Made by a program: the position numbers and the translations under genes | Shown: positions 15,885 through 39,929 of the stretch, in pieces | Layout: every line of letters starts with the position of its first letter | Position numbering within the stretch: position 1 is the stretch's first letter | From: a virus | Taxonomy: Duplodnaviria > Caudoviricetes | Virus record (IMG/VR): IMGVR_UViG_3300020049_016424 | Coordinates: 96,001 to 160,000 of that record | Length of the DNA stretch: 64,000 nucleotides | Strand: one strand, 5' to 3' | The notes under the pieces: generated by a model | Database searches by the model: none | What the model saw: only the letters and a program-made list of their open reading frames with translations | Told to the model about the DNA's origin: nothing

Positions 15885-16457
15885 TCACCCCGTGATGGGG
15901 GTCGCGATGGGCGGCGCCGCGAGGCGTGCCTCGAGCTCTTCTTTGAGATGGGTGCGCGGCGGGTGCGCCGCGCCGTGCTGCTTGCGAGGCCGCATCCGCT
16001 TGCGCGGCTTCGAGTCCCGGAAACACGGCTCGCACAGCTTGCGCGGCACGTAGCTCTTCGTGCGCATGTGACTGCGCAGCGCCTGTCCGGCGGTGACGCA
16101 CTCGAGGCCTCCGCAGCACGTGCACACGTACGTCTCGACGACGGTCGCGGCCTCGAGCTGCCCGAGGATCATCGGGTCGTTCACGTTGAAGTACCGCGTC
16201 GGCATGACCTCGCGGAAGCACCCACAGAGGGTGCCCGGGGGCCGTTCGCTGCCGCAGACGAAGCAATCGTGCTTCGACAGGTCGTCCTGTCGGAACGCGC
16301 TGCTCCAGAGCTCGCCGTGTGCACGCAGGGCCTCGACGGTCACCTGGACTCCGGCGTAGCTGAGCTCGACGCGGAGGCGCTCTTCCTGTCCGAGGAAGAA
16401 TGCCGCGACGCAGCGACGTGCGAAGGTCAGAGAGTCGTAGGTTGCAGGAATGCTCAT
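15885..16457 (-). CDS. Cys-rich hypothetical protein (putative early gene)
   Basis: Several CxxC/CxC motifs; AGGAG SD; GGTAAAAG motif upstream. Confidence 0.65.
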   Translation of the reverse strand: MSIPATYDSLTFARRCVAAFFLGQEERLRVELSYAGVQVTVEALRAHGELWSSAFRQDDLSKHDCFVCGSERPPGTLCGCFREVMPTRYFNVNDPMILGQLEAATVVETYVCTCCGGLECVTAGQALRSHMRTKSYVPRKLCEPCFRDSKPRKRMRPRKQHGAAHPPRTHLKEELEARLAAPPIATPITG

Positions 16458-16495
16458 GCTGGGTCTCCTGGTATCTTGATTGGGGAGTACGCTCT

Positions 16496-16521
16496 CTTTT
16501 ACCCTGCGAAGTGCCGTTTTT
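16496..16521 (-). promoter_or_regulatory. Putative phage-RNAP promoter AAAAC-N12-GGTAAAAG
   Basis: Motif repeated upstream of six minus-strand genes. Confidence 0.6.
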
Positions 16522-16573
16522 CGGACGCGGCAATCGCCTTGTTTTCAGGGGGTATGAGAGGGTAGACTGGGCC

Positions 16574-19500
16574 ATGGCCTCGGACCGTACCCCTCCTGTC
16601 TCCGCCGCTCCCGCCGGCCTGCGCCCTGTCGTTATCAGTGCCCGTGAGAAGCGAGAGCTTCTGCGCGAGAAGACGCTCGAGGGGCTGCAGAGCCTGTTTC
16701 CGATCTTGGGGCGGTCGCACGACCTGCACCTGATCTCGGCGGCGGTGAAGCCCACGACGTATTCGAGCAATGAACAGAAGCGTGCGATCCTCGAAGGCCG
16801 CACGCTGTCCGAGCCCATCGTCGGTCGTCTGGTGCTCAAGGACAAGGCGGGCGCAGTCGTCGACACGAAGGACAAGCACATCCTCGCGCACCTGCCGTAC
16901 TTCACCGAGCGCCACACGATGATCGTCGGGGGCAACGAGTACGAGGTACCGAACCAGCTCCGGCTCAAGCCCGGCGTCTACACCCGCGAGCGCGGCAACG
17001 GCGAGTACGAGGCTGCGTTCAACCTGAGCAAGGGCGAGAACTTCCGACTGTCGATGGACCCCGAGACCGGCAAGATGAGTGCGGAGTTCGCTACGACGAC
17101 CGCGCCGCTATACCCCCTTCTGCGCGCGCTCGGTGTGCAGGACACGACCGTGCGGCAGCACTGGGGCGCAGATCTCCTCGACGCGAACAAGAAGAGCGCA
17201 GGCAAGGAAGAAGCGGTGCTGAACAAGCTCGTCGCGCGCTTCCGCAAGCCGAAGGACGCGATGCCGTCGACGCTCGAAGGCAAGCGCGCGTTCGTGCAGA
17301 ACTACTTCGACGGCACGCGCATGAGCACGCAGGTGACCGAGCGGACGCTGGGCAAGGGCTACGATCGCGTGACTCCGGACGCGCTGTTGCGCGCCTCGCA
17401 GAAGCTGCTCGAGGTGCATCGCGGTGAGGCGGAGGAAGATGACCGCGACTCGCTCGAGTTCAAGACCATCCACAGCGTCGAGGACTTCTTCAAGGAGCGC
17501 CTCGAGAAAGACGCGAAGTACTCCGTCAACAACAAGCTCATCCACAAGATGAACCAGAGCAAGACGAAGCAGATCAAGGGCTTCATGCCGAACGCGGCGT
17601 ACACGCGGCCGTTGACGTCGTTCCTCACGAGCAGCGCGATCTCTGCGATCCCCACGCAGTTCAACCCGATCGAGCTCATCGATCACGCCGCAAAAGTCAC
17701 CTCACTCGGCGAGGGCGGCATCACGGCCGACCGCGCGATCCCGTTCGAGGCCCGCAAGGTGCACGGCACGCACTACGGCGTGCTCGACATCGTGCGCACG
17801 CCCGAGTCGGGGCATGCTGGCATCGACCTACGCGCTGCGATGGGCGCCTACCGCGACTCGGCGGGCGAACTCTACGCACACATGAAGGACACCCGCACGG
17901 GCAAGCACGCGCCGGTGCGTGTGACGACGCTCGCACGGAGCTCTGTCGGCTTTGCAGGACAGGGCGAGTCGAGCGCGAAGATGGACGCGCTCAAAGGCTC
18001 GAACGCAGTGTCGCTCGACCGCAAGAAGGTCGACTACGTCCTCGCCGATCACACGCACCAGTTCTCGCCCGCGACGGCGCTCGTCCCGTTCCTTGATGGG
18101 ATGCAGATGAACCGTGCCATCATGGGCAGCAAGTTCCAGACGCAGGCGCTGCCGCTGCTCGAGCGCGAAGTGCCGTTCATTCAGGCCCAGGCGCCCCGCG
18201 CTGGACACAGCATGGAGCGTGAGGTTGCGCGGCTCACCGTGCCCACCTCGTCTGTGCACGGCACCGTCGAGAAGATCGACGCGGACTACATCTACATCCG
18301 GCCGCATGCGGAGAAGCACGCTGCCGTCTCTGACGACCTCATCGAAGCGCCTGCGCGAGAGACAACTCCTGAAGAGACGCTCTGGGCCAAGCAGGCGGCT
18401 TACGAGGACTACGACCTCGACGAAGAAGACGGCCTCGACGATCTCGCAATCACGCCTCCGGAGCATCTCTCGGACGCGAAGATCGCGTCTTCGGACACGG
18501 GGCTCATCAAGCTCCCGTACGACACGCACTTCCCCCTCGCGGCGAAGACGTACTTGCACAATGACGTCACGGCGAAGGTGGGAGACACGGTTACGCCGGG
18601 GCAGACGCTCGCCGAGAGCAACTTCACCCGCAACGGCACGATGGCGCTCGGTAAGAACCTGTCGGTCGCGTACCTCGCCTACTACGGAAAAAACAGCAAC
18701 GACGCGGTCGTGATTTCGGAGGCGGCCGCGAAGAAGCTGACGAGCGAGCACATGTACAAGGAGGTCCTGCGCAAGGGACCTGACACGCTCCAGGGCAAGG
18801 CGAAGTACATGGCGTATTTCGGCATGCGCTTCACGAAGGCGCAGCTCGACAAGCTCGACGACAACGGTGTGGCGAAGCCGGGGGCGCACTTCAGCCCTGG
18901 CGACCCTATCGTGCTCGCGCTCGAGAAAGCGACGCCCTCTCCCGAGGCCGCAATGCTCGGGCACCTGCACAAGAGCCTCGTGAAGCCCTACCGTGACGCA
19001 GCGGTGATGTGGGAGCACCACACGGACGGGGAGGCGATCGATGCGGTGAACGCCGCGCGGCAGGTCGTCGTCACGGTGCGCACGCACGAGGCCATGAAGA
19101 TCGGCGACAAGCTCGCGAACCGCTTCGGCGGCAAGGGCGTCGTGTCCGAGATCATCCCGCAGCACAAGATGGTGCAGGACGAAGCCGGCAAGCCGATCGA
19201 CGTGCTCTTCACGAGCGCGGGCATCATCTCGCGCATCAACCCCGCGCAGGTCGTCGAAGGTGCCCTGGGCAAGGTGGTCGAGAAGACAGGCAAGCCGCTC
19301 GTCATCCCGCAGTTCCAGGACCACAGCAACGTCGAGTACGCAAAGAAGCTGCTGAAGGAACACGGCATCTCCGACAAGGAGACGGTCTATGACCCGGTCT
19401 CGGGGCGCAGCATCCCGAAGGTGTTCGTCGGACGCAGCTACATCCTCAAGCTCTTCAAGAGCGGCGAGACGAACTACGCAGCACGCGGCGTCACGAGCTA

Positions 19501-21154
19501 CGACGTGAACCTGCAGCCGACCAAGGGCGGCGACGAAGGTGCGAAAGGCCTTGGCAAGATGGAGATCAACACGCTGCTCGCGCACAACGCGCGCAACGTG
19601 CTCAAGGACGTGCTCACCGTGAAGTCCGAGAAGTCGGACGAGTACTGGCGTGCGCTCGAGTTCGGGCTGCCGCCGCCGGCGCCGAAGACGCCGTTCGTCA
19701 CGCAGAAGTTCAACGCAATGCTCACCGGCGCCGGCATCAACGTCGACAAGCGCGGCAGCATCGTCGGTATCCATGCGCTGACCGATGCGCACGTGAAGGG
19801 GCTCTCGAGCGGCGCGCTCACGCTGCCGGAGCTCGAGAAGAGCAAGAGCTTCATGGTCACGTCGAAGAACCTGAAGCCCGAGACCGGCGGCCTGTTCGAC
19901 CCCGTGCGTACCGGCGGGCTGTCGGGCACGCGATGGTCGCACATCGAGCTGCCCGAGGCTTCGGTGAGCCCCGTGTTCGAGGAGCCCGTACGGCGCCTCC
20001 TCGGCCTCACCAAGGCGAGCCTCGAGAAGGAGCTGATGGACAAGGGCGGCGACGCCCTCAAGAAGAAGCTCAACCGCCTCGACCTCGACAAGCTCGAGAC
20101 CGAGCTCGAGGACAAGACGCGCACGGCACGCGCCTCGGCGCTCGACGACGTCGTCAAGCAGCTGAAGTACGTCCGCGCGCTGAAGTCGCACGGCGTGAAG
20201 GCCGGCGACGCGTATTTCCCGACGCTCGTGCCGGTCATCCCGCCCATCATGCGGCCGATCCTGCCGAGCCAGCGCTCGGGAGAGCTTCAGATCTCAGATG
20301 CGAACTACCTCTACCGCGACGTGGCGCTGGCCGCAGCGGGCCTGAAGGCCGCGAAGGAGACCGAGCTCCCCGAGCTCATCGGCTCCGCACGCAAGCACCT
20401 CTACGACGCCCACGCAGCGCTCGCAGGCACCCGCGAGCCCACATCACCGCAGCTTCAAGGCCGCGGCGTGAAGGGCTTCGTCACGCAGGTGACCGGCGCA
20501 GGCAGCCCGAAGAGCGGCTTCCTCTTCAAGAAGATCTTGAAGCGGCAGCAAGACCTATCGGGCCGCGCCACCGCGACGCCCGACAACACCCTCGACATGG
20601 ACCAGATCGGGGTGCCCGAGGACATGCTCTGGAAGACGTACGACAAGTTCGTCATGAAGGGCCTCATCGGGCAGGGCTACGCCGCGACCCGCGCACAGGA
20701 GATGGTGCAGGAGCGCCACCCTGCCGCGAAGGTCGTCTTCGACCGAGAGCTAAAAGAACGGCCGGTGTTCGTGAATCGAGCACCGTCGCTCCATAAGCAC
20801 AACTTCGTGGCCGCCTTCCCTGTAGCGGTTTCTGGGACCTCATTCCGCGTGAACCCCTTCATCGAGAAGGGCATGAACCTCGACTTCGACGGCGACGCCA
20901 TGCAGCTGCATGTGCCGGTATCCCCGAAGGCCGTCGAGGAGGCCAAGAACCTCACGCTGAGTAAGCTCCTGTTCACCGACAAGGCCCGGGGCGATCTCAT
21001 CATCTTCCCACAGCACGAAGCCATCATCGGCGCCTACCTTGCTACTTCGGGCGCCGCGAAGGGCGCTTCGAAGAAGTTCAAGGACAAGGCAGCCGCGATG
21101 GCCGCGTACAAGCGGGGCGAGATCACCCTCGAGACTCCCATCGAGATCGGCTGA
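16574..21154 (+). CDS. Phage multi-subunit RNA polymerase: beta fused to N-terminal half of beta'
   Basis: Beta motifs TPESGHAG, NRAIMGSKFQTQALPL, LGKNL, GDKLANRFGGKGVVS, SRINPAQ, GKMEINTL; beta' motifs GGLFD, HIEL, VPVIPP..RP, SGRA, NRAPSLHK, catalytic NLDFDGD; start set at MASDR (TAGACT 5 nt upstream). Confidence 0.95.
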   Translation: MASDRTPPVSAAPAGLRPVVISAREKRELLREKTLEGLQSLFPILGRSHDLHLISAAVKPTTYSSNEQKRAILEGRTLSEPIVGRLVLKDKAGAVVDTKDKHILAHLPYFTERHTMIVGGNEYEVPNQLRLKPGVYTRERGNGEYEAAFNLSKGENFRLSMDPETGKMSAEFATTTAPLYPLLRALGVQDTTVRQHWGADLLDANKKSAGKEEAVLNKLVARFRKPKDAMPSTLEGKRAFVQNYFDGTRMSTQVTERTLGKGYDRVTPDALLRASQKLLEVHRGEAEEDDRDSLEFKTIHSVEDFFKERLEKDAKYSVNNKLIHKMNQSKTKQIKGFMPNAAYTRPLTSFLTSSAISAIPTQFNPIELIDHAAKVTSLGEGGITADRAIPFEARKVHGTHYGVLDIVRTPESGHAGIDLRAAMGAYRDSAGELYAHMKDTRTGKHAPVRVTTLARSSVGFAGQGESSAKMDALKGSNAVSLDRKKVDYVLADHTHQFSPATALVPFLDGMQMNRAIMGSKFQTQALPLLEREVPFIQAQAPRAGHSMEREVARLTVPTSSVHGTVEKIDADYIYIRPHAEKHAAVSDDLIEAPARETTPEETLWAKQAAYEDYDLDEEDGLDDLAITPPEHLSDAKIASSDTGLIKLPYDTHFPLAAKTYLHNDVTAKVGDTVTPGQTLAESNFTRNGTMALGKNLSVAYLAYYGKNSNDAVVISEAAAKKLTSEHMYKEVLRKGPDTLQGKAKYMAYFGMRFTKAQLDKLDDNGVAKPGAHFSPGDPIVLALEKATPSPEAAMLGHLHKSLVKPYRDAAVMWEHHTDGEAIDAVNAARQVVVTVRTHEAMKIGDKLANRFGGKGVVSEIIPQHKMVQDEAGKPIDVLFTSAGIISRINPAQVVEGALGKVVEKTGKPLVIPQFQDHSNVEYAKKLLKEHGISDKETVYDPVSGRSIPKVFVGRSYILKLFKSGETNYAARGVTSYDVNLQPTKGGDEGAKGLGKMEINTLLAHNARNVLKDVLTVKSEKSDEYWRALEFGLPPPAPKTPFVTQKFNAMLTGAGINVDKRGSIVGIHALTDAHVKGLSSGALTLPELEKSKSFMVTSKNLKPETGGLFDPVRTGGLSGTRWSHIELPEASVSPVFEEPVRRLLGLTKASLEKELMDKGGDALKKKLNRLDLDKLETELEDKTRTARASALDDVVKQLKYVRALKSHGVKAGDAYFPTLVPVIPPIMRPILPSQRSGELQISDANYLYRDVALAAAGLKAAKETELPELIGSARKHLYDAHAALAGTREPTSPQLQGRGVKGFVTQVTGAGSPKSGFLFKKILKRQQDLSGRATATPDNTLDMDQIGVPEDMLWKTYDKFVMKGLIGQGYAATRAQEMVQERHPAAKVVFDRELKERPVFVNRAPSLHKHNFVAAFPVAVSGTSFRVNPFIEKGMNLDFDGDAMQLHVPVSPKAVEEAKNLTLSKLLFTDKARGDLIIFPQHEAIIGAYLATSGAAKGASKKFKDKAAAMAAYKRGEITLETPIEIG

Positions 21155-22594: not shown

Positions 22595-23530
22595 GTGCTT
22601 TCCCCCGAACAGCTCCTGAAGCTCGCTGCGCCCATCTTCTCAGCAGAAGCTGCGCCTCTCGCGCAGCGTCTCTTCTCGACGAAGCTCGGTCCCACTGGCG
22701 CGCAAGCGTTGCAGAACCGCTCGCGAGCAGTGACTGACCGGATTACGCAGCAGGGGCTCGCTCGGGCACGCGCACTCGGGGACGCCGCAGGTCCGACTTC
22801 CTCGAAGTGGCTCGCATCCCGCTCGGGGTGGAATGCCCCGACACTCGCGAGTCCGCAGTTCGACTCCCTCTTCGAAGGAGCGCTGAAGGCAGCGGCTGCA
22901 AAGAAGAAGGACGACGACACCGACTACGACGATCTCCGCAGTACCCTGCGGAGTTTCGCGCCGTTCACGGACGATGTAGCTCGCAGGGTCACATCGCATG
23001 CGAAGAAGCGCGGCGCGAAGAGGGCGCTCGAGAAGTTCGGCATGGAGCTCGCCTTCGACACGCCGCAAGAGGTGCAGCGTCACCGTGACGTGCGCGGACT
23101 CGCCCAAGGTGCGGGCGCCCTGGGCGGCGCCTACGCCGGCTTCAAGGCCACGCCCGGCGGCATGGGGCGCAAGCTCCTCGGCGGCGTGATCGGAGGCGGC
23201 CTCGGACACACGGGTGCCGGCATCGCGGTGGACTCCGCCCACGACATCCCGCAGCGTACGCGGGCGCAGTACGACACCACGCAGCAGCGCCTGCATGCAG
23301 CCGGCGGCGTTCCTGCGCTGAAGCTCGCGGACATCGCCGACGATCTCGTCGCAGCCATCGCCGAGGGCGAGGGGCACGAAGTAGGCCCTGGCACCGAGTC
23401 CTTCGCGGAGTCCGAGCTTGCGCAGCGCACGTCGTCCCCGTCCTGGGGCGCGGTGGCGAACGTAGACGGCAGCGGAACGCAGGGCGGAAACATGCAGACC
23501 GGCGCTGGGATGTCCTACGGAGGCGTGTGA
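22595..23530 (+). CDS. Putative inner-head/virion protein with glycine-zipper segment
   Basis: TGaTACGCT 6 nt before GTG; KLAA/KLAD, GAKRALEKFGM, GxxxG segments. Confidence 0.65.
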   Translation: MLSPEQLLKLAAPIFSAEAAPLAQRLFSTKLGPTGAQALQNRSRAVTDRITQQGLARARALGDAAGPTSSKWLASRSGWNAPTLASPQFDSLFEGALKAAAAKKKDDDTDYDDLRSTLRSFAPFTDDVARRVTSHAKKRGAKRALEKFGMELAFDTPQEVQRHRDVRGLAQGAGALGGAYAGFKATPGGMGRKLLGGVIGGGLGHTGAGIAVDSAHDIPQRTRAQYDTTQQRLHAAGGVPALKLADIADDLVAAIAEGEGHEVGPGTESFAESELAQRTSSPSWGAVANVDGSGTQGGNMQTGAGMSYGGV

Positions 23531-25005
23531 TGCCGCTCGAGGGCGCCGAAGCTCTTCGCACCACGCTGCAACCGCACCAGCAACGTGTGGGCGACCGGCT
23601 GTCTGCAGATGACCAGCCGGGGCTCGTAGCCATCCACGGCCTCGGCAGCGGCAAGACCCTCACAAGCATCGGCGCCGCACAGGCGCTCGGGCTGCCTGCG
23701 CACGCTGTCGTGCCTGCCTCGCTCCAGGGCAACTACGAGAAGGAGCTCGACAAGCACCTCACGACGGGGGCAGCGCGGCCTGAAGTGCACTCGCTGCAGC
23801 GCACGACGATGCGCCCCGAGAGCGTCGACCCTGCGGGCGGTTTCCTGATCATGGATGAGGCGCACCGCGTCCGCGACCCTTCGACGAAGAGCTACAGTGC
23901 CGCGAAGCAACTCGGACAACAGGCTGCGAAGCGCCTGTACATGACCGCGAGCCCCACCTACAACCACCCCGTCGATCTCGCGCCCCTCGTGAACCTTGCT
24001 GCAGGGGAGAAGGTCCTGCCGGCGAACAAGCAGGAGTTCGAAGATCGGTACGTGCGCACGCGCCGCATCGACCCTGGATTCTTCGCACGCACCTTTCGCG
24101 GCATCAAACCCGGCGAGGTGCAGGAGCTCACGCGCCAGCAGGAGCTCGAGGACGTCGCGAAGAAGTGGGTCGACTACCACGAAGGCGGCGGAGGTGATTT
24201 CCCCGACCGTATCGATGAGACCATCTCCGTGCCGATGTCGAGCGAGCAGCGCGACGTCTACGACACGGTGCTTGGCAAGGCCCCTGCCTGGATGCAGTAC
24301 AAGGTGAGGCACGGGCTACCCCCTTCGAAGGCCGAAGCTGCCGATCTCAACGCGTTCATGACCGGCGCGCGGCAGGCACAGCTCTCCCCGCACGTGTTCC
24401 AGCAAGGGATGGACCCGCTGCTGGGTGCGACGAAGCAGCACGCCGCATTCGAGCGTCTGCAGAAAGCCATTGCAGAGAACCCGGAGCATCGGGCAGTCGT
24501 CTACTCGAACTACCTGCAAGCGGGCCTCGGGCCCTACCAGGCCCTCCTCGACAAGCACCAGATCCCATACGCGTCGTTCACCGGCGAAATGGGGCGCGGT
24601 GAGCGGGAGCAGGCCGTGCGTGACTACAATCGGGGCAAACTCCGTGCGCTCCTCGTCTCGAGCGCGGGCGGCGAAGGCCTGGACCTGAAGGGGACACGGC
24701 AGCTGCAGTTACTCGAACCTGCTTGGAACGCCGAACGGCTGAATCAGGTGATTGGGCGGGGGATCCGCTATAAGAGCCACGCGCATTTACCCGAAGATCA
24801 GCGCAACGTTCGCGTAGAACAGTATTTGTCTTCCATCCCGCAGGGGCATCTAGGCAAGTTCTTTGGTGTGCAACCCGAGATGACGGCTGACGCGTACCTC
24901 ACGCAGGTAAGTGCAGACAAAGAACGGCTGAATCAGCAGTTACGTCGCATATTGGAACGCGCGCAAGCCCATGCTACTCCTCCCCTAGCGCATGAAAAAA
25001 CATAA
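23527..25005 (+). CDS. SF2 (SNF2-like) helicase between the RNAP genes
   Basis: HGLGSGKT, MDEAH, MTASP, SAGGEGLDLKG, QVIGRGIR. Confidence 0.9.
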   Translation: MMPLEGAEALRTTLQPHQQRVGDRLSADDQPGLVAIHGLGSGKTLTSIGAAQALGLPAHAVVPASLQGNYEKELDKHLTTGAARPEVHSLQRTTMRPESVDPAGGFLIMDEAHRVRDPSTKSYSAAKQLGQQAAKRLYMTASPTYNHPVDLAPLVNLAAGEKVLPANKQEFEDRYVRTRRIDPGFFARTFRGIKPGEVQELTRQQELEDVAKKWVDYHEGGGGDFPDRIDETISVPMSSEQRDVYDTVLGKAPAWMQYKVRHGLPPSKAEAADLNAFMTGARQAQLSPHVFQQGMDPLLGATKQHAAFERLQKAIAENPEHRAVVYSNYLQAGLGPYQALLDKHQIPYASFTGEMGRGEREQAVRDYNRGKLRALLVSSAGGEGLDLKGTRQLQLLEPAWNAERLNQVIGRGIRYKSHAHLPEDQRNVRVEQYLSSIPQGHLGKFFGVQPEMTADAYLTQVSADKERLNQQLRRILERAQAHATPPLAHEKT

Positions 25006-25894
25006 GTACCGCGTACAAGAGTACCGCGCAGAGTATCATGCGCTGTGGAACGCCGTAGCTCGCTGTACAAACCCGCGCAATGCTTCGTACTCTGCATACG
25101 GCGCAAAAGGGGTCCAGGTGTGTGAAGCATGGCGCGGCTCTGAAGGATTCAACGTATTCATCCACGATATGGGGCCCCGTCCTAGTGTTCTACACAGTTT
25201 GGACCGTGTAGATGTGACGGGCGGTTACACGCGCGACAATTGTCGGTGGGCCACCCGATCAGAGCAGGCAAATAACACTAGGAATACCCGAAAAATCACG
25301 CTATTTGAAACAACTAAGACGTTCAAACAGTGGGCGGCAGTGTACGGACTGCGCGATTCGTTAGTGCACACCCGTATCAACAAACTAGGCTGGCCGATAG
25401 AGCGTGCGTTCACCACGCCTGCTGCGAAGGTGGACCAAGCTAAGGGCGCAGACCCTGCAGCAGCCGCCCTTCGACGTGCGATCCAACGCTGCCACAACCC
25501 AAACAACCCACAGTACGCGCGCTATGGCGCTCGCGGAATCGTTGTCTGCACACAATGGCGTGGAAAGCGGGGCCTGTCGCAGTTCAAACAGGATATCGGA
25601 CCCCATCCGGGGCCTGGATATTCGCTGGATCGAATAGATACCAACCAAGGATACGCGCCGGAAAACTGTCGTTGGGCGACACGAACAACACAATTGAATA
25701 ACCGTAGGTGCACTAAAACCCTAACATACGCAGGACGCTGTCTCACGTATGCGCAATGGGCGCGAGATCTGGGCATTGACGAACAGACAGTCCGCTGGCG
25801 CATCAAACAAGGGTGGCCCCTTCCGCGGGTGCTCGCGCCAAGCCCAATACAACGCGCACGCAGGCTCTTGACCGCTGCCGCAGCTACCCAGTAG
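24992..25894 (+). mobile_element. Free-standing homing endonuclease with two tandem HNH units
   Basis: Two copies of RC.NP...Y..YG..G..VC..W...SLDR.D...GY...NCRWAT...NN; visibly lower GC than flanks. Confidence 0.85.
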
Positions 25895-25904
25895 CCTGTT
25901 GCGC

Positions 25905-26556
25905 ATGTTGATCCTCGAAATCCGTGCCGGCGAAGGTGGATCTGACGCCAAGGACCTCGTTCTCGAACAGCAGGAGATGTATCTCCGGCGCTGCGCGTTC
26001 CACGGTCTTTGACTGCGCGCTGCTCGACGCACGCCCCAGCAGCGTGACGCTCCGCATCGCAGGCTCTCGCGCCGCAGACCTGTTCCGAGACGAAACTGGC
26101 AAGCACTGCTGGATGCGTGTGCCTCCGGGCGAGAAGCGCGGTCGTGTTCACACGAGCACCGTCACCGTGGCCGTGCTGCCCGAGGTCTCTGAGCGCACGC
26201 TCTCGATCCCGGAACGTGACCTCGAGATCTCAGTGTGCAGAGGCTCGGGCGCAGGAGGCCAGCACCGTAACAAGACCGAGTCGGCCGTGATGATGAAGCA
26301 CGTGCCTACAGGGATCATCGTGCGTTGTGAGTCCGAGCGCTCTCAGATCCAAAACCGCGCCTCTGCGCTCGAAGTGCTCCGTGCGCGACTCGGCGCCGCG
26401 GCCCGCACAGGCGCGCACCTCGACCGCAACGCAGGGCGTAGGGAGCAGCTCGAAGGGTCGAAGCGCCGAACCGTACGCGTACCCGACGGGCAAGTCGTCG
26501 ACCACCTCACCGGTAGGGTCTGGAAGCTGCGAGACTACCTGAAGGGGACCTGGTAA
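25905..26556 (+). CDS. Class I peptide chain release factor homologue (RF1-like, lacking domain 1) expressed via +1 frameshift at CTT-TGA-C (26007-26013)
   Basis: Frame 0 (25905-26012): MLILEIRAGEGGSDA...MYLRR..HGL*; +1 frame continues DCALL...ETGKH...RVPPGEKRGRVHTSTVTVAVLP...GAGGQHRNKTESAV...ERSQIQNR; joined product about 216 aa. Confidence 0.85.
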
Positions 26557-26572
26557 GATCCGGCCTAGCTCC

Positions 26573-28369
26573 ATGAAGACGCTCGGCCAGCACCTGCTCG
26601 ATGACGCCGTACCCGCCGGCTATCGCCCACAAGGGGCTTGGACGCGCGGGGCGCTCTACAAGCAGATGGTGCGGCTCGCGCAAGACGACCCCGAAACGTA
26701 CACGCAGACCATCGTCCGGGTGAAGAACCTGGGCGATGAGCTCGCGACGCTCGAGGGCATCAGCGTCGGTCTCGACGACATCGCACCGATCCACGCGACG
26801 CGGGATGCCGTGATGAAGCCCGCGATCTCCGCCTTCAACAAGGCGACGACCGACACGCAACGCCGCAAGGTCGTCATGGACACGCAGGCGAAGCTCGTCG
26901 CGCAGACCAAGGACCATCCCGGAACGCTCGGCGCGATGGCGCGTTCAGGCGGCCGCGGTAACCAGGTGCAGCTGATGAAGACGGTGGGCAGCCCCGTGGC
27001 CGCAAACGACGAGCGGGACGTGGCGCAGCCCTGGCTGATCCGCAACTCCTACAGCGAGGGCCTCAAGCCCGCAGACTGGTGGACCGCGAATCGCGAAGCG
27101 CGCATGGCCGCGGTGAAGTCGACCATCGAGGTCACCGAGCCGGGCGACCTCTCGAAGATCATCGTCAACAACACCACCGGCCAAGTCGTCACCACGCACG
27201 ACTGCGGCAGCTACAACGGCCTCGAGTTCCAAACGACGTCGTCTGAGATCTACGACCGATACCTCGCAGGCGCCGCGGGCGGCTTCCCGCACAACACGCT
27301 CATCGACAAACGCGTCGTCGACGAACTCCGCAAGAAGAACATCACGAAGGTCATCGTGCGCTCTCCGATGACGTGCGAGGCTTCGACCGGCGTGTGCCAG
27401 CTCTGCATGGGTCGCGCCGTCACCGGCAAGCTCAACCGCATCGGGGACAACGTCGGCGTGCGCGCTTCGCACGCGATGGGCGAACCCCTCACGCAGCTCG
27501 CGCTCAACGCCAAGCACGGCGTGCGCACAGCGGGCGGCGCCGCGGGCGTCAGCGGTCTCGAGGGCTTCCGGGCGCTGATCGAAAGCCCCGTGACCTTCAA
27601 GGGCAAGGCGGCGCTCGCGCCGGTGAAGGGCACCGTAACGAAGATCGAAGCCGCGCCCCAGGGCGGTACGTTCTTCCACATGGGCGAACACCGCGTGCAC
27701 GCACTACCGGGGCTGCGCGCCGTCGTGAAGGCGGGCGACTCAGTGCATGCCGGGGACGTGCTCTCCGAAGGCACGCCGCGTCCGATGGAGGTCGTGGCGC
27801 TCAAGGGCCTCGGTGCCGGTCGGGACTACCTGGTGAACCAGCTCGGCACGATCTACAGGGACGCAGGCATCGACGTCGATCGCCGGCACCTCGAGATCCT
27901 CGCCAAGAGTACGCTGAATCACATGAAGGTCGACAAGATCGGTCAGAACGACCATGGCGTCGTTCGGGGCGACGTCATCACCTACAACAAGTTCCGGCAG
28001 ATCGTGAAAGACTCGATCGAGGACACGCCGCTTTCAGACGCCGAGGGCGAGTACCTCGCGGCGCCGGTGTTCGAGCACCTTCCAGGCACCCGCATCACTT
28101 CGGGCCTGATGGCCGATCTACGCCGGCGCGGTGTGAAGTCCGTGAAGACCGCCGCGGGCGCTCCGCAGGTGTCGCCCATCATGGCGCCTGCCACGCGTAA
28201 TCCGCTCTTGAACCCCGACTGGATGGCCCGCATGGGGCATCGCCTGCTCAAGCAGACGCTTCTCGACGCGGCGCACCAGGCGCACACGAGCGACATTCAC
28301 GGCGCATCGCCGATTCCCGCCATGATCTATAGCGCCGAGTTCGGCGAAGGTTTCGACGGGCACTACTAA
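26573..28369 (+). CDS. Phage RNA polymerase beta' C-terminal half
   Basis: SGGRGN, SYSEGL, TEPGDLSK (bridge helix), DCG, RSPMTC..GVCQLCMG, GEPLTQLALNAKH (trigger loop), DRRHLEIL. Confidence 0.93.
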   Translation: MKTLGQHLLDDAVPAGYRPQGAWTRGALYKQMVRLAQDDPETYTQTIVRVKNLGDELATLEGISVGLDDIAPIHATRDAVMKPAISAFNKATTDTQRRKVVMDTQAKLVAQTKDHPGTLGAMARSGGRGNQVQLMKTVGSPVAANDERDVAQPWLIRNSYSEGLKPADWWTANREARMAAVKSTIEVTEPGDLSKIIVNNTTGQVVTTHDCGSYNGLEFQTTSSEIYDRYLAGAAGGFPHNTLIDKRVVDELRKKNITKVIVRSPMTCEASTGVCQLCMGRAVTGKLNRIGDNVGVRASHAMGEPLTQLALNAKHGVRTAGGAAGVSGLEGFRALIESPVTFKGKAALAPVKGTVTKIEAAPQGGTFFHMGEHRVHALPGLRAVVKAGDSVHAGDVLSEGTPRPMEVVALKGLGAGRDYLVNQLGTIYRDAGIDVDRRHLEILAKSTLNHMKVDKIGQNDHGVVRGDVITYNKFRQIVKDSIEDTPLSDAEGEYLAAPVFEHLPGTRITSGLMADLRRRGVKSVKTAAGAPQVSPIMAPATRNPLLNPDWMARMGHRLLKQTLLDAAHQAHTSDIHGASPIPAMIYSAEFGEGFDGHY

Positions 28370-28405
28370 TCTCTGTGGGGAGATTCGTGGTAGAAAGGGA
28401 GTAAC

Positions 28406-36971: not shown

Positions 36972-39929
36972 GTGGCCAACAAAATCATCACCTTCGACGA
37001 CCACTTCGCTACGGGCGAGCCGACGGTACAGCTCATCAGCACGCCGGGGCGTAATGGACGGATGCTCCGCGAGGCTACGTCGCTGCACAAGACCGCAGCA
37101 GGCAACGATTCGCCCGCGCTCGAATACATCAAGAGCGTGCAGCCGGAAGAGGGCAAGACGACGGTGCTCGTCATCGGCCTCGGAGATCACGAGACGTACG
37201 GCGCGAATCGCAATGGCGACGGATTTCCGAGCGAGCCGGTGCCCGGCAAGATCGCGGCGGACGAGGTGCTGACGAAGCACTACCAGAGCTACGACAACGC
37301 GCACGTCTTCGAGCACCACGTGAACCACGACCCGGCCAAGGCCATTGGCCGGGTGAAGAAGGCGTTCTGGAACCCCCGCATGCGGCGCGTCGAGGTGGTC
37401 GAGGACTTCGACCACAAGAAGGCGCCCCACCTGCTCGAGAAGATCGGTAGCGGGGAATATCCAAGTAAGTCGATGGGATGCGGCAAGGCCGGGACCCAGA
37501 TTCACACGCCGACAGGCCGTGTAGCCATCGAGACCATCGCCGTAGGGGACGAGGTCATCACGCACACGGGTGCGGTGCGGGTCGTCACCGAGCTGCATCG
37601 ACGTGAGTACCGCGGGCTGCTCTACACGATCCACTCCGGCGTGGGTACTTCCACCATGACGCAAGAGCACCCCTACGCGGTGCTTCCCTTTGCCGCCGTC
37701 TGCGCACGCACACCCCACGGTGAGTACAAACGCCGCCCTGTGGCAGAGATCGACACCGCGCATGTGCACTGGACTCCTGCGGAAGACGTACGAGTAGGGG
37801 ACTACCTTCTGACACCGTTCGATACGGCGGTGACGGAGAGCCTGTCTGTCGAGCAATGCCAATTCTTGGGGTACTACGCCGCGGAGGGGAACCTACACTA
37901 TGGCACCAGCCACTCAGTCGTGTTCACGCACCACGTGACAGACACGTTGCGCGAAGAGATGCCCGTCCTAGCGCGCGCACTGGGAGTTCCGAAAGTGAAT
38001 ACCCGTCCGCATGCCGAGTCCGCAGCGGCCATGTACACCGAGGTTCGCAGCAAGGAGCTGGCAGCGCTCTGCAACACGCATGTTGGCCGGCGAGCTCCTG
38101 AGAAGCGGCTGAGCCTGGAGCTCATGCGACAGCCGCGCGAGCAGCAACTCGCGTTCCTCGGCGCCATGATCAACGGAGACGGCGGCACGGACTCCAAAGG
38201 CGATTTTTACATCGCCACCTGCAACCGTAACCTTGCGCACCAGCTTCAAACGGTGGGATTCCGCTGCGGCATCTACTCATGTGTGCACACCATCAACCAC
38301 AAGCCGTCGGTGCTCGTCAAGAAATCGACCGTCGAGTACCGCGTGTGCTTCGCGCGACGGTACTGCGATGTCATCGCACCCTACTGCGCCAAGGTCTCCC
38401 CGCGAATGATGAAGGGGCCCAGCACCGGCCCCCTTCTCGGGGCGGGTTTCGTGATCTCTCGTGTGAAAGAGATCTCACTCGAGCCGTTCGAAGGCCCCGT
38501 CTACAACTTCGAGGTCGAGGGGGACAACTCCTACGTCACGGAGAATCACGCAGTCCACAACTGCAAGATCAAGTACGACACGTGCACGATCTGCGGCAAC
38601 AACGCGCCGACACGCAAGCAGTACTGCGAGCACCTGAAGTACTCGATGGGCAAAGTTCTGCCCGACGGCCGCAAGGTCGCTGCGCTCAACCCCTCCCCAC
38701 GATTCTTCGACTCGTCCTGGGTGTTCCGCCCTGCAGACCGCACGGGCTTCATGTTGAAGAAAGTCGCAGACGCCGTCGAGCTCTGGACTCCGAGCTACGA
38801 GCTCGCCGAGCGCGTCGAAGACCTACGCAGCAAGGCCGCTGCGTTCGGCAAGGCCTCTGCCATCGAAAAAACGATCTCGGGAGACCCGGTCGCGTCGAAT
38901 AGCGGCCTGCCCGGCGGCTCGCTCGGTCTCGTGAAGAAGTACTCAGACACGGCGCCAGAGAAGAAGGTCTCGGGCCCATCTGAGTCTCAAATCAAGGTGA
39001 TGATCGAGTACACGCCGTCTGAAGCGCTCGGCACCGCCGATGCGTGCGGCATGCCGCTCGGCCTCAAGGACTTGATCCAGTTCTTCATGGGCCGCATGGG
39101 CGCAGGCGCGCCGGATGATGCGACGCTCGAGCAAGCCTCGAAGCAGGCCGCCGCGGTGTTCGAGCTCTTCGAGCAGTATCCGCGCTTCTACGACGACGTG
39201 CTCAAGGCGGCAGGCCTCGCGGATGACCTGCGCGTCTCGGAGAAGCTCGCAAACGAACTAGCACCGCAACAGGTGCCAGACGTACGGCTGCGCGACACGC
39301 CGCTGCACCAGTACCGCGGCATCTCGATGCTCGCGCCGCGCGATCAGCGCCCGAACACCGACACGCTCACCTACACATCCCCGCAAGGACAGGCCTACAC
39401 GACGAATCTCGGACGTGCGCGGGAAACCGCGGAGTCGCTCGAGGGCCGCGCCCAGGCTGGAAAGTACCTGCGCGGCGCAGGCTACCTCGGCATGGGCACG
39501 CTCATGGGCGCTGCAGGTCTCGGCAAGCTGATGCTCGGCAAGCGCACCCCCATGAACCGCTTCCTCGGAGGGGGGCTCGCAGGGCTCGGCGTAGCGTCGG
39601 GCCTCAAGGGCATCCACGAAGGGGCCCGTGACGTGCGCATGGGTGACCTCGCAGGACCCAAGGTCATGACCAATGAAGGGGTGCCGATCTCGGCGTATAC
39701 CGAGATGGTTCCGGCCAAGATGGGCTCCTTCGCTCCGGAAATGGCCTACGTCTTGGCGCGGCGGCGCGACGGCGCTTGCGCTACAGTGCCCGAGACGCGT
39801 AAACTCGCGGTGTGCGCTCACATTGCAGAGGCTGAGATCGCAGACAGCGAGAGCCCCGTGCTCGGCCCGACTCTCCAGTTGGAAAAGACAGCGCTCCTCC
39901 TGGAAACCCACATCCTCTCTTGCCTCTGA
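36972..39929 (+). CDS. Prohead maturation protease (intein-containing) with C-terminal extension
   Basis: NRNGDGF, FEHH.N, AIG.V, spliced SMG|CKIKYDTCTICG..CEH, F.DSSWVFRPADRT; upstream of scaffolds and MCP. Confidence 0.75.
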   Translation: MANKIITFDDHFATGEPTVQLISTPGRNGRMLREATSLHKTAAGNDSPALEYIKSVQPEEGKTTVLVIGLGDHETYGANRNGDGFPSEPVPGKIAADEVLTKHYQSYDNAHVFEHHVNHDPAKAIGRVKKAFWNPRMRRVEVVEDFDHKKAPHLLEKIGSGEYPSKSMGCGKAGTQIHTPTGRVAIETIAVGDEVITHTGAVRVVTELHRREYRGLLYTIHSGVGTSTMTQEHPYAVLPFAAVCARTPHGEYKRRPVAEIDTAHVHWTPAEDVRVGDYLLTPFDTAVTESLSVEQCQFLGYYAAEGNLHYGTSHSVVFTHHVTDTLREEMPVLARALGVPKVNTRPHAESAAAMYTEVRSKELAALCNTHVGRRAPEKRLSLELMRQPREQQLAFLGAMINGDGGTDSKGDFYIATCNRNLAHQLQTVGFRCGIYSCVHTINHKPSVLVKKSTVEYRVCFARRYCDVIAPYCAKVSPRMMKGPSTGPLLGAGFVISRVKEISLEPFEGPVYNFEVEGDNSYVTENHAVHNCKIKYDTCTICGNNAPTRKQYCEHLKYSMGKVLPDGRKVAALNPSPRFFDSSWVFRPADRTGFMLKKVADAVELWTPSYELAERVEDLRSKAAAFGKASAIEKTISGDPVASNSGLPGGSLGLVKKYSDTAPEKKVSGPSESQIKVMIEYTPSEALGTADACGMPLGLKDLIQFFMGRMGAGAPDDATLEQASKQAAAVFELFEQYPRFYDDVLKAAGLADDLRVSEKLANELAPQQVPDVRLRDTPLHQYRGISMLAPRDQRPNTDTLTYTSPQGQAYTTNLGRARETAESLEGRAQAGKYLRGAGYLGMGTLMGAAGLGKLMLGKRTPMNRFLGGGLAGLGVASGLKGIHEGARDVRMGDLAGPKVMTNEGVPISAYTEMVPAKMGSFAPEMAYVLARRRDGACATVPETRKLAVCAHIAEAEIADSESPVLGPTLQLEKTALLLETHILSCL
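37479..38561 (+). mobile_element. Intein with LAGLIDADG homing endonuclease (361 aa)
   Basis: Begins CGKAGTQIHT; block B T.EHP; FLGYYAAEG and FLGAMINGDG; VYNFEV...AVHN followed by Cys. Confidence 0.93.

Follow-up and report, generated by a model that had tools for sequence, protein, structure and literature searches.

A conserved prfB-type CUU-stop +1 frameshift signal in genes for short RF1-type release factors of phages and Myxococcota

Programmed +1 frameshifting at CUU-UGA is treated as a hallmark of prfB. A 64,000-nucleotide stretch of DNA (hereafter the window), contained in a 182,833-bp IMG/VR virus record from a phage of ~183 kb, carries the sequence CTT TGA C at the point where two reading frames of a release factor gene meet, and this raises the question of whether the split is a recoding signal at a new position or a broken gene, and what such a signal would control. 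The initial annotation had proposed that an ATG at 25905 opens 35 codons leading up to CTT TGA C, that the +1 frame resumes at GAC and supplies the rest of the factor including GGQ, that the N-terminus given by the ORF track is false, and that the protein lacks domain 1 and the site falls inside domain 2. The letters of the window agree with the first of these statements, and the domain matches and alignments described below uphold the others. The coordinates of the gene and its surroundings are collected in Table 1.

Table 1. Features of the split release factor gene and of the surrounding transcription module, in window coordinates.
Feature	Positions	Strand	Description
Segment 1, release factor gene	25905..26009	+	Codons 1-35, zero frame, beginning with ATG and closing with CTT, the slippery Leu codon
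Conserved island	25988..26013	+	25/26 nt identical to L190; flanks heavily diverged
Shift site CTT TGA C	26007..26013	+	CTT 26007-26009, TGA 26010-26012, C 26013
Segment 2, +1 frame	26011..26556	+	GAC 26011, 181 codons, then TAA 26554-26556
Codon-recognition loop WMRVPPG	26113..26130	+	From alignment to T. thermophilus RF1 and the family alignment
GGQ catalytic motif	26254..26262	+	Inside the family signature GGQHRNKTES
ORF-track false N-terminus	25924..26010	+	GTG 25924 and 29 codons, +1 frame across segment 1
Beta + beta'-N fusion	16400-21154		One 1584-aa protein, Rpb2 domains then Rpb1 N-terminal domains
SNF2 helicase	23527-25005		Transcription module
Double-HNH endonuclease	24992..25894	+	phrog_3377, phrog_374; lower G+C
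Beta'-C piece	26573-28369		598-aa Rpb1 domain-5 piece

The zero-frame peptide read from ATG 25905 is MLILEIRAGEGGSDAKDLVLEQQEMYLRRCAFHGL, which starts with MLILEIRAGEGG and ends in ...CAFHGL, and it makes up two elements of domain 2, strand 2-8 and helix 13-32, EIRAGEGG included. Segment 2 completes this domain and adds the GGQ-bearing domain 3 as well as domain 4. The ORF track had instead called a 210-aa protein from GTG 25924, whose N-terminus is false because its first 29 residues are out of frame. One +1 step at CTT-T yields a joined product of 216 aa (24 kDa), here named P0001, with the predicted junction peptide CAFHGL-DCALLDARPSSVTLR (...CAFHGL-DCALLDAR...).

P0001 was then compared with known families of release factors. 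It matches the Pfam domains PCRF (PF03462, 9e-17, model positions 102-194) and RF-1 (PF00472, 1e-27) and contains GGQ. Among the NCBIfam models it scores 180 bits with prfA, 153 with prfB, 79 with prfH, and 46 with ArfB, every one under the respective cut-off; the prfA match begins at position 106 of 347 and stands at 180 bits versus a cut-off of 400, so that P0001 does not reach the full-length RF1 equivalog. Against the RF1 chains of the PDB, residues 3-214 align to T. maritima RF1 89-311 (E 3e-38) without interruption at the junction. Because of this alignment range, domain 1 is absent and the site lies within domain 2, where the frame break sits between helix alpha-5 and the next strand. 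The AlphaFold2 model of the joined protein has a mean pLDDT of 93.4, with 97 across the junction and 96-98 over residues 1-40, and it superposes best on ribosome-bound RF1 (TM 0.85, rmsd 2.8 A), followed by RF2 (0.78) and PrfH (0.65). P0001 does not have the architecture of ArfB or ICT1, a GGQ domain alone with a basic tail, since only residues 96-131 match ArfB and domains 2 and 4 are present. As read from these domain matches and the predicted fold, the gene is that of a 216-aa class-I release factor of the RF1 type without domain 1.

Relatives were found in three sets, namely, viral contigs (497 relatives, 106 loci taken), one genome per prokaryotic species (more than 557 relatives, 80 loci taken), and protein clusters (3,530 at E <1e-10). 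For 140 non-redundant loci from phages and bacterial chromosomes, a script compared the frame encoding EIRAxEGG with the frame encoding GGQ. A +1 shift was required in 113 of them, and in all 113 the codon preceding the stop is CTT. That stop, hereafter the gate stop, lies exactly 31 codons past the E of EIRAxEGG in 107 loci and 41-45 codons past it in 6; it is TGA in 85 loci, TAG in 25 (22 %), and TAA in 3 (3 %), and it is followed by C in 87. Furthermore, a Shine-Dalgarno (SD)-like run with a 3-nt spacer to CTT is present in 74 of the 113 loci (GGAGG in 56, GGAG in 18), the upstream codons being CGG at -3 in 83 and AGG at -2 in 56. These homologues share just 40-60 % protein identity and come from many unrelated assemblies. 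The conservation of a CTT-stop site at this position, which the initial annotation had listed among its checks, is thereby established. The window gene belongs to this short-factor family both by its features (an (I/V)xEIRAxEGG start, CTT and a stop at 31 codons, GGQHRNKTES, and a length of ~215 aa) and by its place inside the family on the tree. The heptamer CTTTGAC itself occurs twice in the window versus 5.3 copies expected; what goes beyond chance is its placement at the frame junction of a release factor gene and its conservation in relatives, not the heptamer. Because the same break is conserved across homologues, the split is neither an error nor a pseudogene, and the comparison identifies it as a genuine prfB-type CUU-stop +1 recoding signal at a non-prfB position.

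Downstream of the gate stop's T, CCTC is enriched at bases +3 to +6 (C in 87, C in 49 or G in 34, T in 79, and C in 80 of 113 loci). This tetranucleotide is complementary to the upstream GGAGG and may merely mirror Asp-Leu codons.

The remaining loci solve the same stretch of the protein in other ways. Homologues are continuous in 12 of the 140 loci, some of which are ordinary full-length RF1 genes, and at the position of the site they read Phe and then one of Asp, Glu, Asn, and Ser; the fact that CTT TGA C contains TTT GAC in its +1 frame suggests how the site may have originated. About 15 of the 140 loci have an in-frame stop without a change of frame (among them L015, L018-L022, L026, L052, L058, L063, L105, L153, L157, and L170). 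This stop is mostly TGA, often then followed by CTG, and is found at the usual codon or ~10 codons downstream, and these genes may be gated by readthrough. An alternative genetic code was sought in their 4-6 kb flanks, where ORF density with TGA or TAG taken as sense was not above that of +1 controls. In the locus L095, CTT TAG stands at the usual codon with the C-terminal part in the +2 frame, an arrangement for which a second shift site or an indel may be responsible.

The window's own lineage offers a closer comparison. A family of Logan contigs from several runs (L190-L193) carries a gene 72-76 % identical to the window's in amino acids, and a JGI protein that is 98 % identical (P0004) likewise spans the same shift site. 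Between the window and L190, dS is 1.27 (Nei-Gojobori) and dN/dS is 0.20 overall, 0.17 in segment 2, and 0.44 in segment 1. The last seven codons before the stop contain no synonymous change, versus a pS of 0.61 over the entire gene, and they fall in the conserved island of Table 1. The comparisons with L190 and P0004 thus show purifying selection on both frames and a constraint on the nucleotides of the site.

One element of the prfB cassette is missing from the window. The initial annotation had noted that no internal SD is evident, and this is correct for the window, in which TTC CAC GGT precedes CTT without any SD-like run, yet in 74 of the 113 +1 loci GGAGG or GGAG stands at the spacing known from prfB. 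SD-less members, the window included, number 14 of 113 (12 %), and several of them have a His codon at -2. An RNA structure replacing the SD was looked for by folding 25970-26080 and 26010-26080, and in neither case did the fold exceed its shuffles in stability (z 0.48 and 0.61); in L190 there is a downstream hairpin (z -2.0), which has no counterpart in the window. Because the SD stimulator is missing, the shift in the window copy is probably inefficient and its rate low.

The residues that read the stop codon are also unusual in the window copy. With numbering as in T. thermophilus RF1, Met (26113-26115) occupies the position of Gln181 and PPG (26122-26130) that of the PxT tripeptide (184-186), with Gly in place of Thr186, while H193 and T194 are retained; the recognition loop is thus RF1 in length and reads PPG, as first described. 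The PxT/Gln181/Thr194 set of RF1 is therefore incomplete in this copy, whereas in most relatives Q is retained and the tripeptide is PPT or PPN. The switch loop is four residues shorter, REQLEGSKRR in the window versus RKxQVGSGMRGDKxR in the family. Both P0004 and L190 have Asn at the Thr186 position, and of the four amino acid differences between the window and P0004, three (G/N, E/D, and H/Q; 26122-26151) affect the recognition loop, which hints at a fast evolution of the decoding residues. Across the family, T, N, S, or G is found at 186 and H or Q at 193, a variation beyond that of the solved RF1 sequences aligned. M181, G186, and the short switch loop suggest that codon reading is changed or relaxed in the window copy, whose codon preference is unpredictable because Q181 and T186 are lost and whose activity may differ from that of the rest of the family. 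In RF1, PxT, Q181, and T194 exclude G at the second position. Most members of the family have all three and should, by their residues, read UAA and UAG. The proposal that the factor backs up UGA termination is only partly supported by these data: the protein is of the RF1 type (prfA above prfB in score, with PxT, Q181, and T194 kept in most relatives), and for this reason UGA back-up is not its expected activity.

The choice of the gate stop was compared with that of the gene's own stop. UAA is the codon read by both host factors. The gene ends in TAA in 63 of the 113 +1 loci, and the gate is TAA in just 3. Where the locus has a G+C of 0.6 or more, the gene itself ends in TAA in 26 of 61 cases, versus about 10 % of flanking ORFs. 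The window gene has TAA as its own stop, which the initial annotation had set against the TGA of most + strand virion genes; among 143 GC3-selected ORFs of the whole 182,833-bp phage, the last codon is TGA in 107 (75 %), TAG in 19, and TAA in 17. Rare TAA gates and frequent TAA own stops fit selection acting on a competition between termination and slippage. The tree implies about 19-21 switches of the gate between TGA and TAG, and at least 8 of these changes are forced by well-supported branches. The gate codon showed no association with the tripeptide (PPT with 53 TGA and 14 TAG gates, PPN with 20 and 3), with H or Q at 193 (Fisher p 0.63), or with the G+C of the locus (Mann-Whitney p 0.34). 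The device had been proposed to be specific to UGA and RF2, and this part of the proposal fails, given the 25 CTT TAG and 3 CTT TAA relatives and the frequent switching. Because the gate flips so often, a sensor dedicated to RF2 is unlikely to be its conserved purpose.

We infer that the cassette is, quite probably, a programmed +1 frameshift that ties synthesis of the factor to slow termination at the UGA gate, the factor serving as a gated supplement to the termination machinery during infection. After segment 1 has been translated, tRNA-Leu would sit on CUU in the P site, and the A site would hold UGA-C, which is a weak stop. Prompt recognition of UGA by a release factor would free the 35-residue peptide and no factor would be made. 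If the A site stayed empty, the P-site tRNA-Leu could re-pair from CUU to UUU, GAC would be read, and the full factor would be produced. Synthesis would in this way vary inversely with how fast the gate codon ends translation, a speed that for UGA would be set by host RF2, and slow reading of this codon would raise the yield of full factor. In prfB, termination and +1 slippage compete in the same manner, an SD-anti-SD contact 3 bases upstream favours slippage, and shifting falls when any element of the cassette is altered (PMC12421855). The product would be expected to work without domain 1, which is reported to be needed only for RF3 and not for recognising the codon or releasing the peptide (PMC1586002). 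Because the factor is of the RF1 type yet the gate is usually UGA (75 %), the loop would not be a simple prfB-like autoregulation. Granted the frameshift, we lean, by a modest degree of confidence, toward a gate that senses whichever host factor reads it rather than toward a self-regulating factor that reads all stops.

The variation of the recognition loop allows a broader reading, which we consider possible but rather improbable. The family would consist of stop-gated release factors of relaxed or omnipotent specificity, and every member would be kept behind a kinetic gate opened by unread stops in the A site because a promiscuous release factor is dangerous. The window lineage, with M181, G186, a short switch loop, and no SD, would be the most derived and possibly act on codons or stalled complexes left unserved by host RF1 and RF2. 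Unlikely, in our judgment, though the foremost rival of the gate that senses host factors, is the related scheme in which such a relaxed or omnipotent factor reads its own gate, as RF2 does in prfB, and caps its own level because it is toxic in excess. The use of all three stops as gates, which flip between close relatives without any co-varying tripeptide or residue 193, would be in keeping with this scheme, as would a recognition loop that varies (T/N/S/G at 186, H/Q at 193) unlike that of solved RF1 sequences and a window lineage without both Q181 and T186. Moreover, toxicity is reported for excess RF2 and for omnipotent RF2 variants (PMC12421855; PMC7530605). However, most TGA-gated members retain the full RF1 set of PxT, Q181, and T194, which argues against their reading UGA.

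It is improbable that the site merely fixes a low yield and carries no regulatory information. The absence of the SD from the window and 14 of 113 members in all, together with an interchangeable gate codon, is what such constitutive attenuation would allow, but the same effect could be had at lower cost from a weak start or promoter, and CTT in 113 of 113 loci, the exact SD spacing, the C after the stop, and the near-exclusion of TAA argue for selection on a kinetic competition. A pseudogene or a one-base assembly error in the window phage is very improbable: a single-base frame break is just what an indel gives, and the window has no SD, but the same CTT-stop at the same codon recurs in 113 independent sequences of 40-60 % identity from many assemblies, relatives of 98 % and 76 % identity from other samples keep the break, and dN/dS is about 0.2 on either side of it. 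Hardly credible is the production of two proteins, a 35-aa peptide and an internally initiated C-terminal part, separate or assembled non-covalently, since the starts that gene callers find for the latter lack conservation and belong to the overlap that is read out of frame, this scheme gives no role to the exact 31-codon spacing or to a slippery CTT with an SD, and in the AlphaFold2 model the domain 2/4 sheet includes the N-terminal strand and helix as integral parts.

The distribution of the family was next considered. Its proteins in the databases are all called as C-terminal fragments of 160-230 aa and, where named, are labelled "peptide chain release factor 1". The factor had been taken for a phage protein only; this does not hold, as the short factor also occurs in Myxococcota chromosomes in a non-phage context, for example, in Minicystis rosea, where its neighbours are cellular, and phage and bacterial sequences are intermixed on the tree. 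We also asked whether it is a core myxobacterial gene and rejected this idea, as just 2 of 151 sampled genomes of the phylum carry the short factor and the remaining nine hits near E 1e-45 in those genomes are full-length RF1; its bacterial distribution is thus sporadic. Minicystis, Archangium, and Nannocystis, whose cultured carriers of the chromosomal homologue include M. rosea DSM 24000, A. gephyra, and N. exedens DSM 71, have ordinary RF1 and RF2 in addition to the short factor. The prfB genes of Nannocystis, Archangium, and Minicystis (L195, L196, and L197) are continuous from model position 9-12 to 352, with no frameshift. A megablast search with window positions 25000-28400 gave no match among deposited phages.

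In the window phage, the gene lies in the transcription module (Table 1). The multisubunit RNA polymerase is split there, and the helicase, HNH, and release factor genes sit between its pieces. The neighbourhood in L190 comprises the SNF2 helicase, the release factor, and the C-terminal piece of RNAP beta', with no HNH gene, and the stop of the helicase overlaps the start of the release factor (ATGA). The HNH gene of the window looks like a homing-endonuclease insertion between helicase and release factor and, because L190 has the ATGA overlap and no HNH gene, this insertion would have removed a translational coupling. Elsewhere in the window, a 985-aa ORF (36972-39929) with Hint and LAGLIDADG matches is probably an intein-bearing gene. 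Many relatives have the short-factor gene inside tRNA arrays, and the window phage has one tRNA gene, for tRNA-Asp. Suppressor tRNAs were considered as partners of the factor and rejected in view of this single tRNA-Asp and of the ordinary anticodons in the relatives' arrays, the exception being one CUA tRNA in L105. A phage tmRNA adjoins the short release factor gene in two cases (L032, 2557-2908; L057, 1106-1464).

The prfB cassette is here found to gate a different, shortened factor of the RF1 type, in thousands of phage and myxobacterial genes. It would offer a second, independent natural system in which to study how termination kinetics control frameshifting, with amber and ochre versions included, and it means that in high-GC lineages whose prfB has lost its shift, ribosomes are still asked to perform one. 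It also points to phages adjusting termination capacity during infection. Gene models can be corrected in many genomes, as current annotation truncates short-factor genes as "peptide chain release factor 1". New here are the SD-less sub-lineage with altered decoding residues, the differing choice of stop codon at the gate and at the end of the gene, the large number of gate flips, the finding that carriers have a continuous prfB, and the sporadic bacterial distribution. The GeneTack clusters list RF2 alone, the literature on phage release factors mentions no frameshift, and our literature searches found no published description of a short frameshift-gated RF1-like family.

Comparison with known systems places the gene between several of them. 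It shares with bacterial prfB the CUU, the in-frame stop, the following C, and a class-I release factor as product (PMC12421855; PMC3711429). The SD with its 3-nt spacer is matched in 74 of 113 relatives and not in the window, and the prfB site lies at codon ~26 in domain 1 of a gene that encodes RF2, whereas that of the window lies at codon 35, in domain 2 of an RF1-type protein without domain 1. Furthermore, a survey from 2025 that covered over 12,000 genomes reported no TAG gate among 8,164 prfB motifs, in contrast to TAG in 22 % and TAA in 3 % of short-factor members, and no programmed frameshift in prfA (PMC12421855). With canonical RF1 (PrfA), P0001 shares the PCRF and RF-1 domains, GGQ, the length of the recognition loop, and the best match in sequence and fold, and it differs in M181, G186, a switch loop four residues shorter, and a score of 180 bits, far under the prfA cut-off of 400; because domain 1 is absent, it would make no contact with RF3 or the L11 stalk. 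To PrfH, in whose genes we know of no frameshift, the match is weak (TIGR03072, 79 versus a cut-off of 167 bits; fold TM 0.65 versus 0.85 for RF1). PrfH (RF-H) resembles P0001 in its ~200 aa, its lack of domain 1, and its GGQ, but it pairs with RtcB2 (PMC1586002), whereas the window gene has no RtcB neighbour and is flanked by an SNF2 helicase, HNH, and an RNAP beta' piece. The nearest conceptual parallel is the eRF1-type factor of Mimivirus and Megavirus, a viral class-I release factor that needs frameshift and readthrough at internal stops (PMC3521657), just as some relatives of the window gene have an in-frame stop instead of, or besides, the shift. That factor belongs to the eukaryotic/archaeal eRF1 family of giant viruses of amoebae and is unrelated in sequence and independent in origin. 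The gene described here carries a known recoding cassette, that of prfB, in a new setting.
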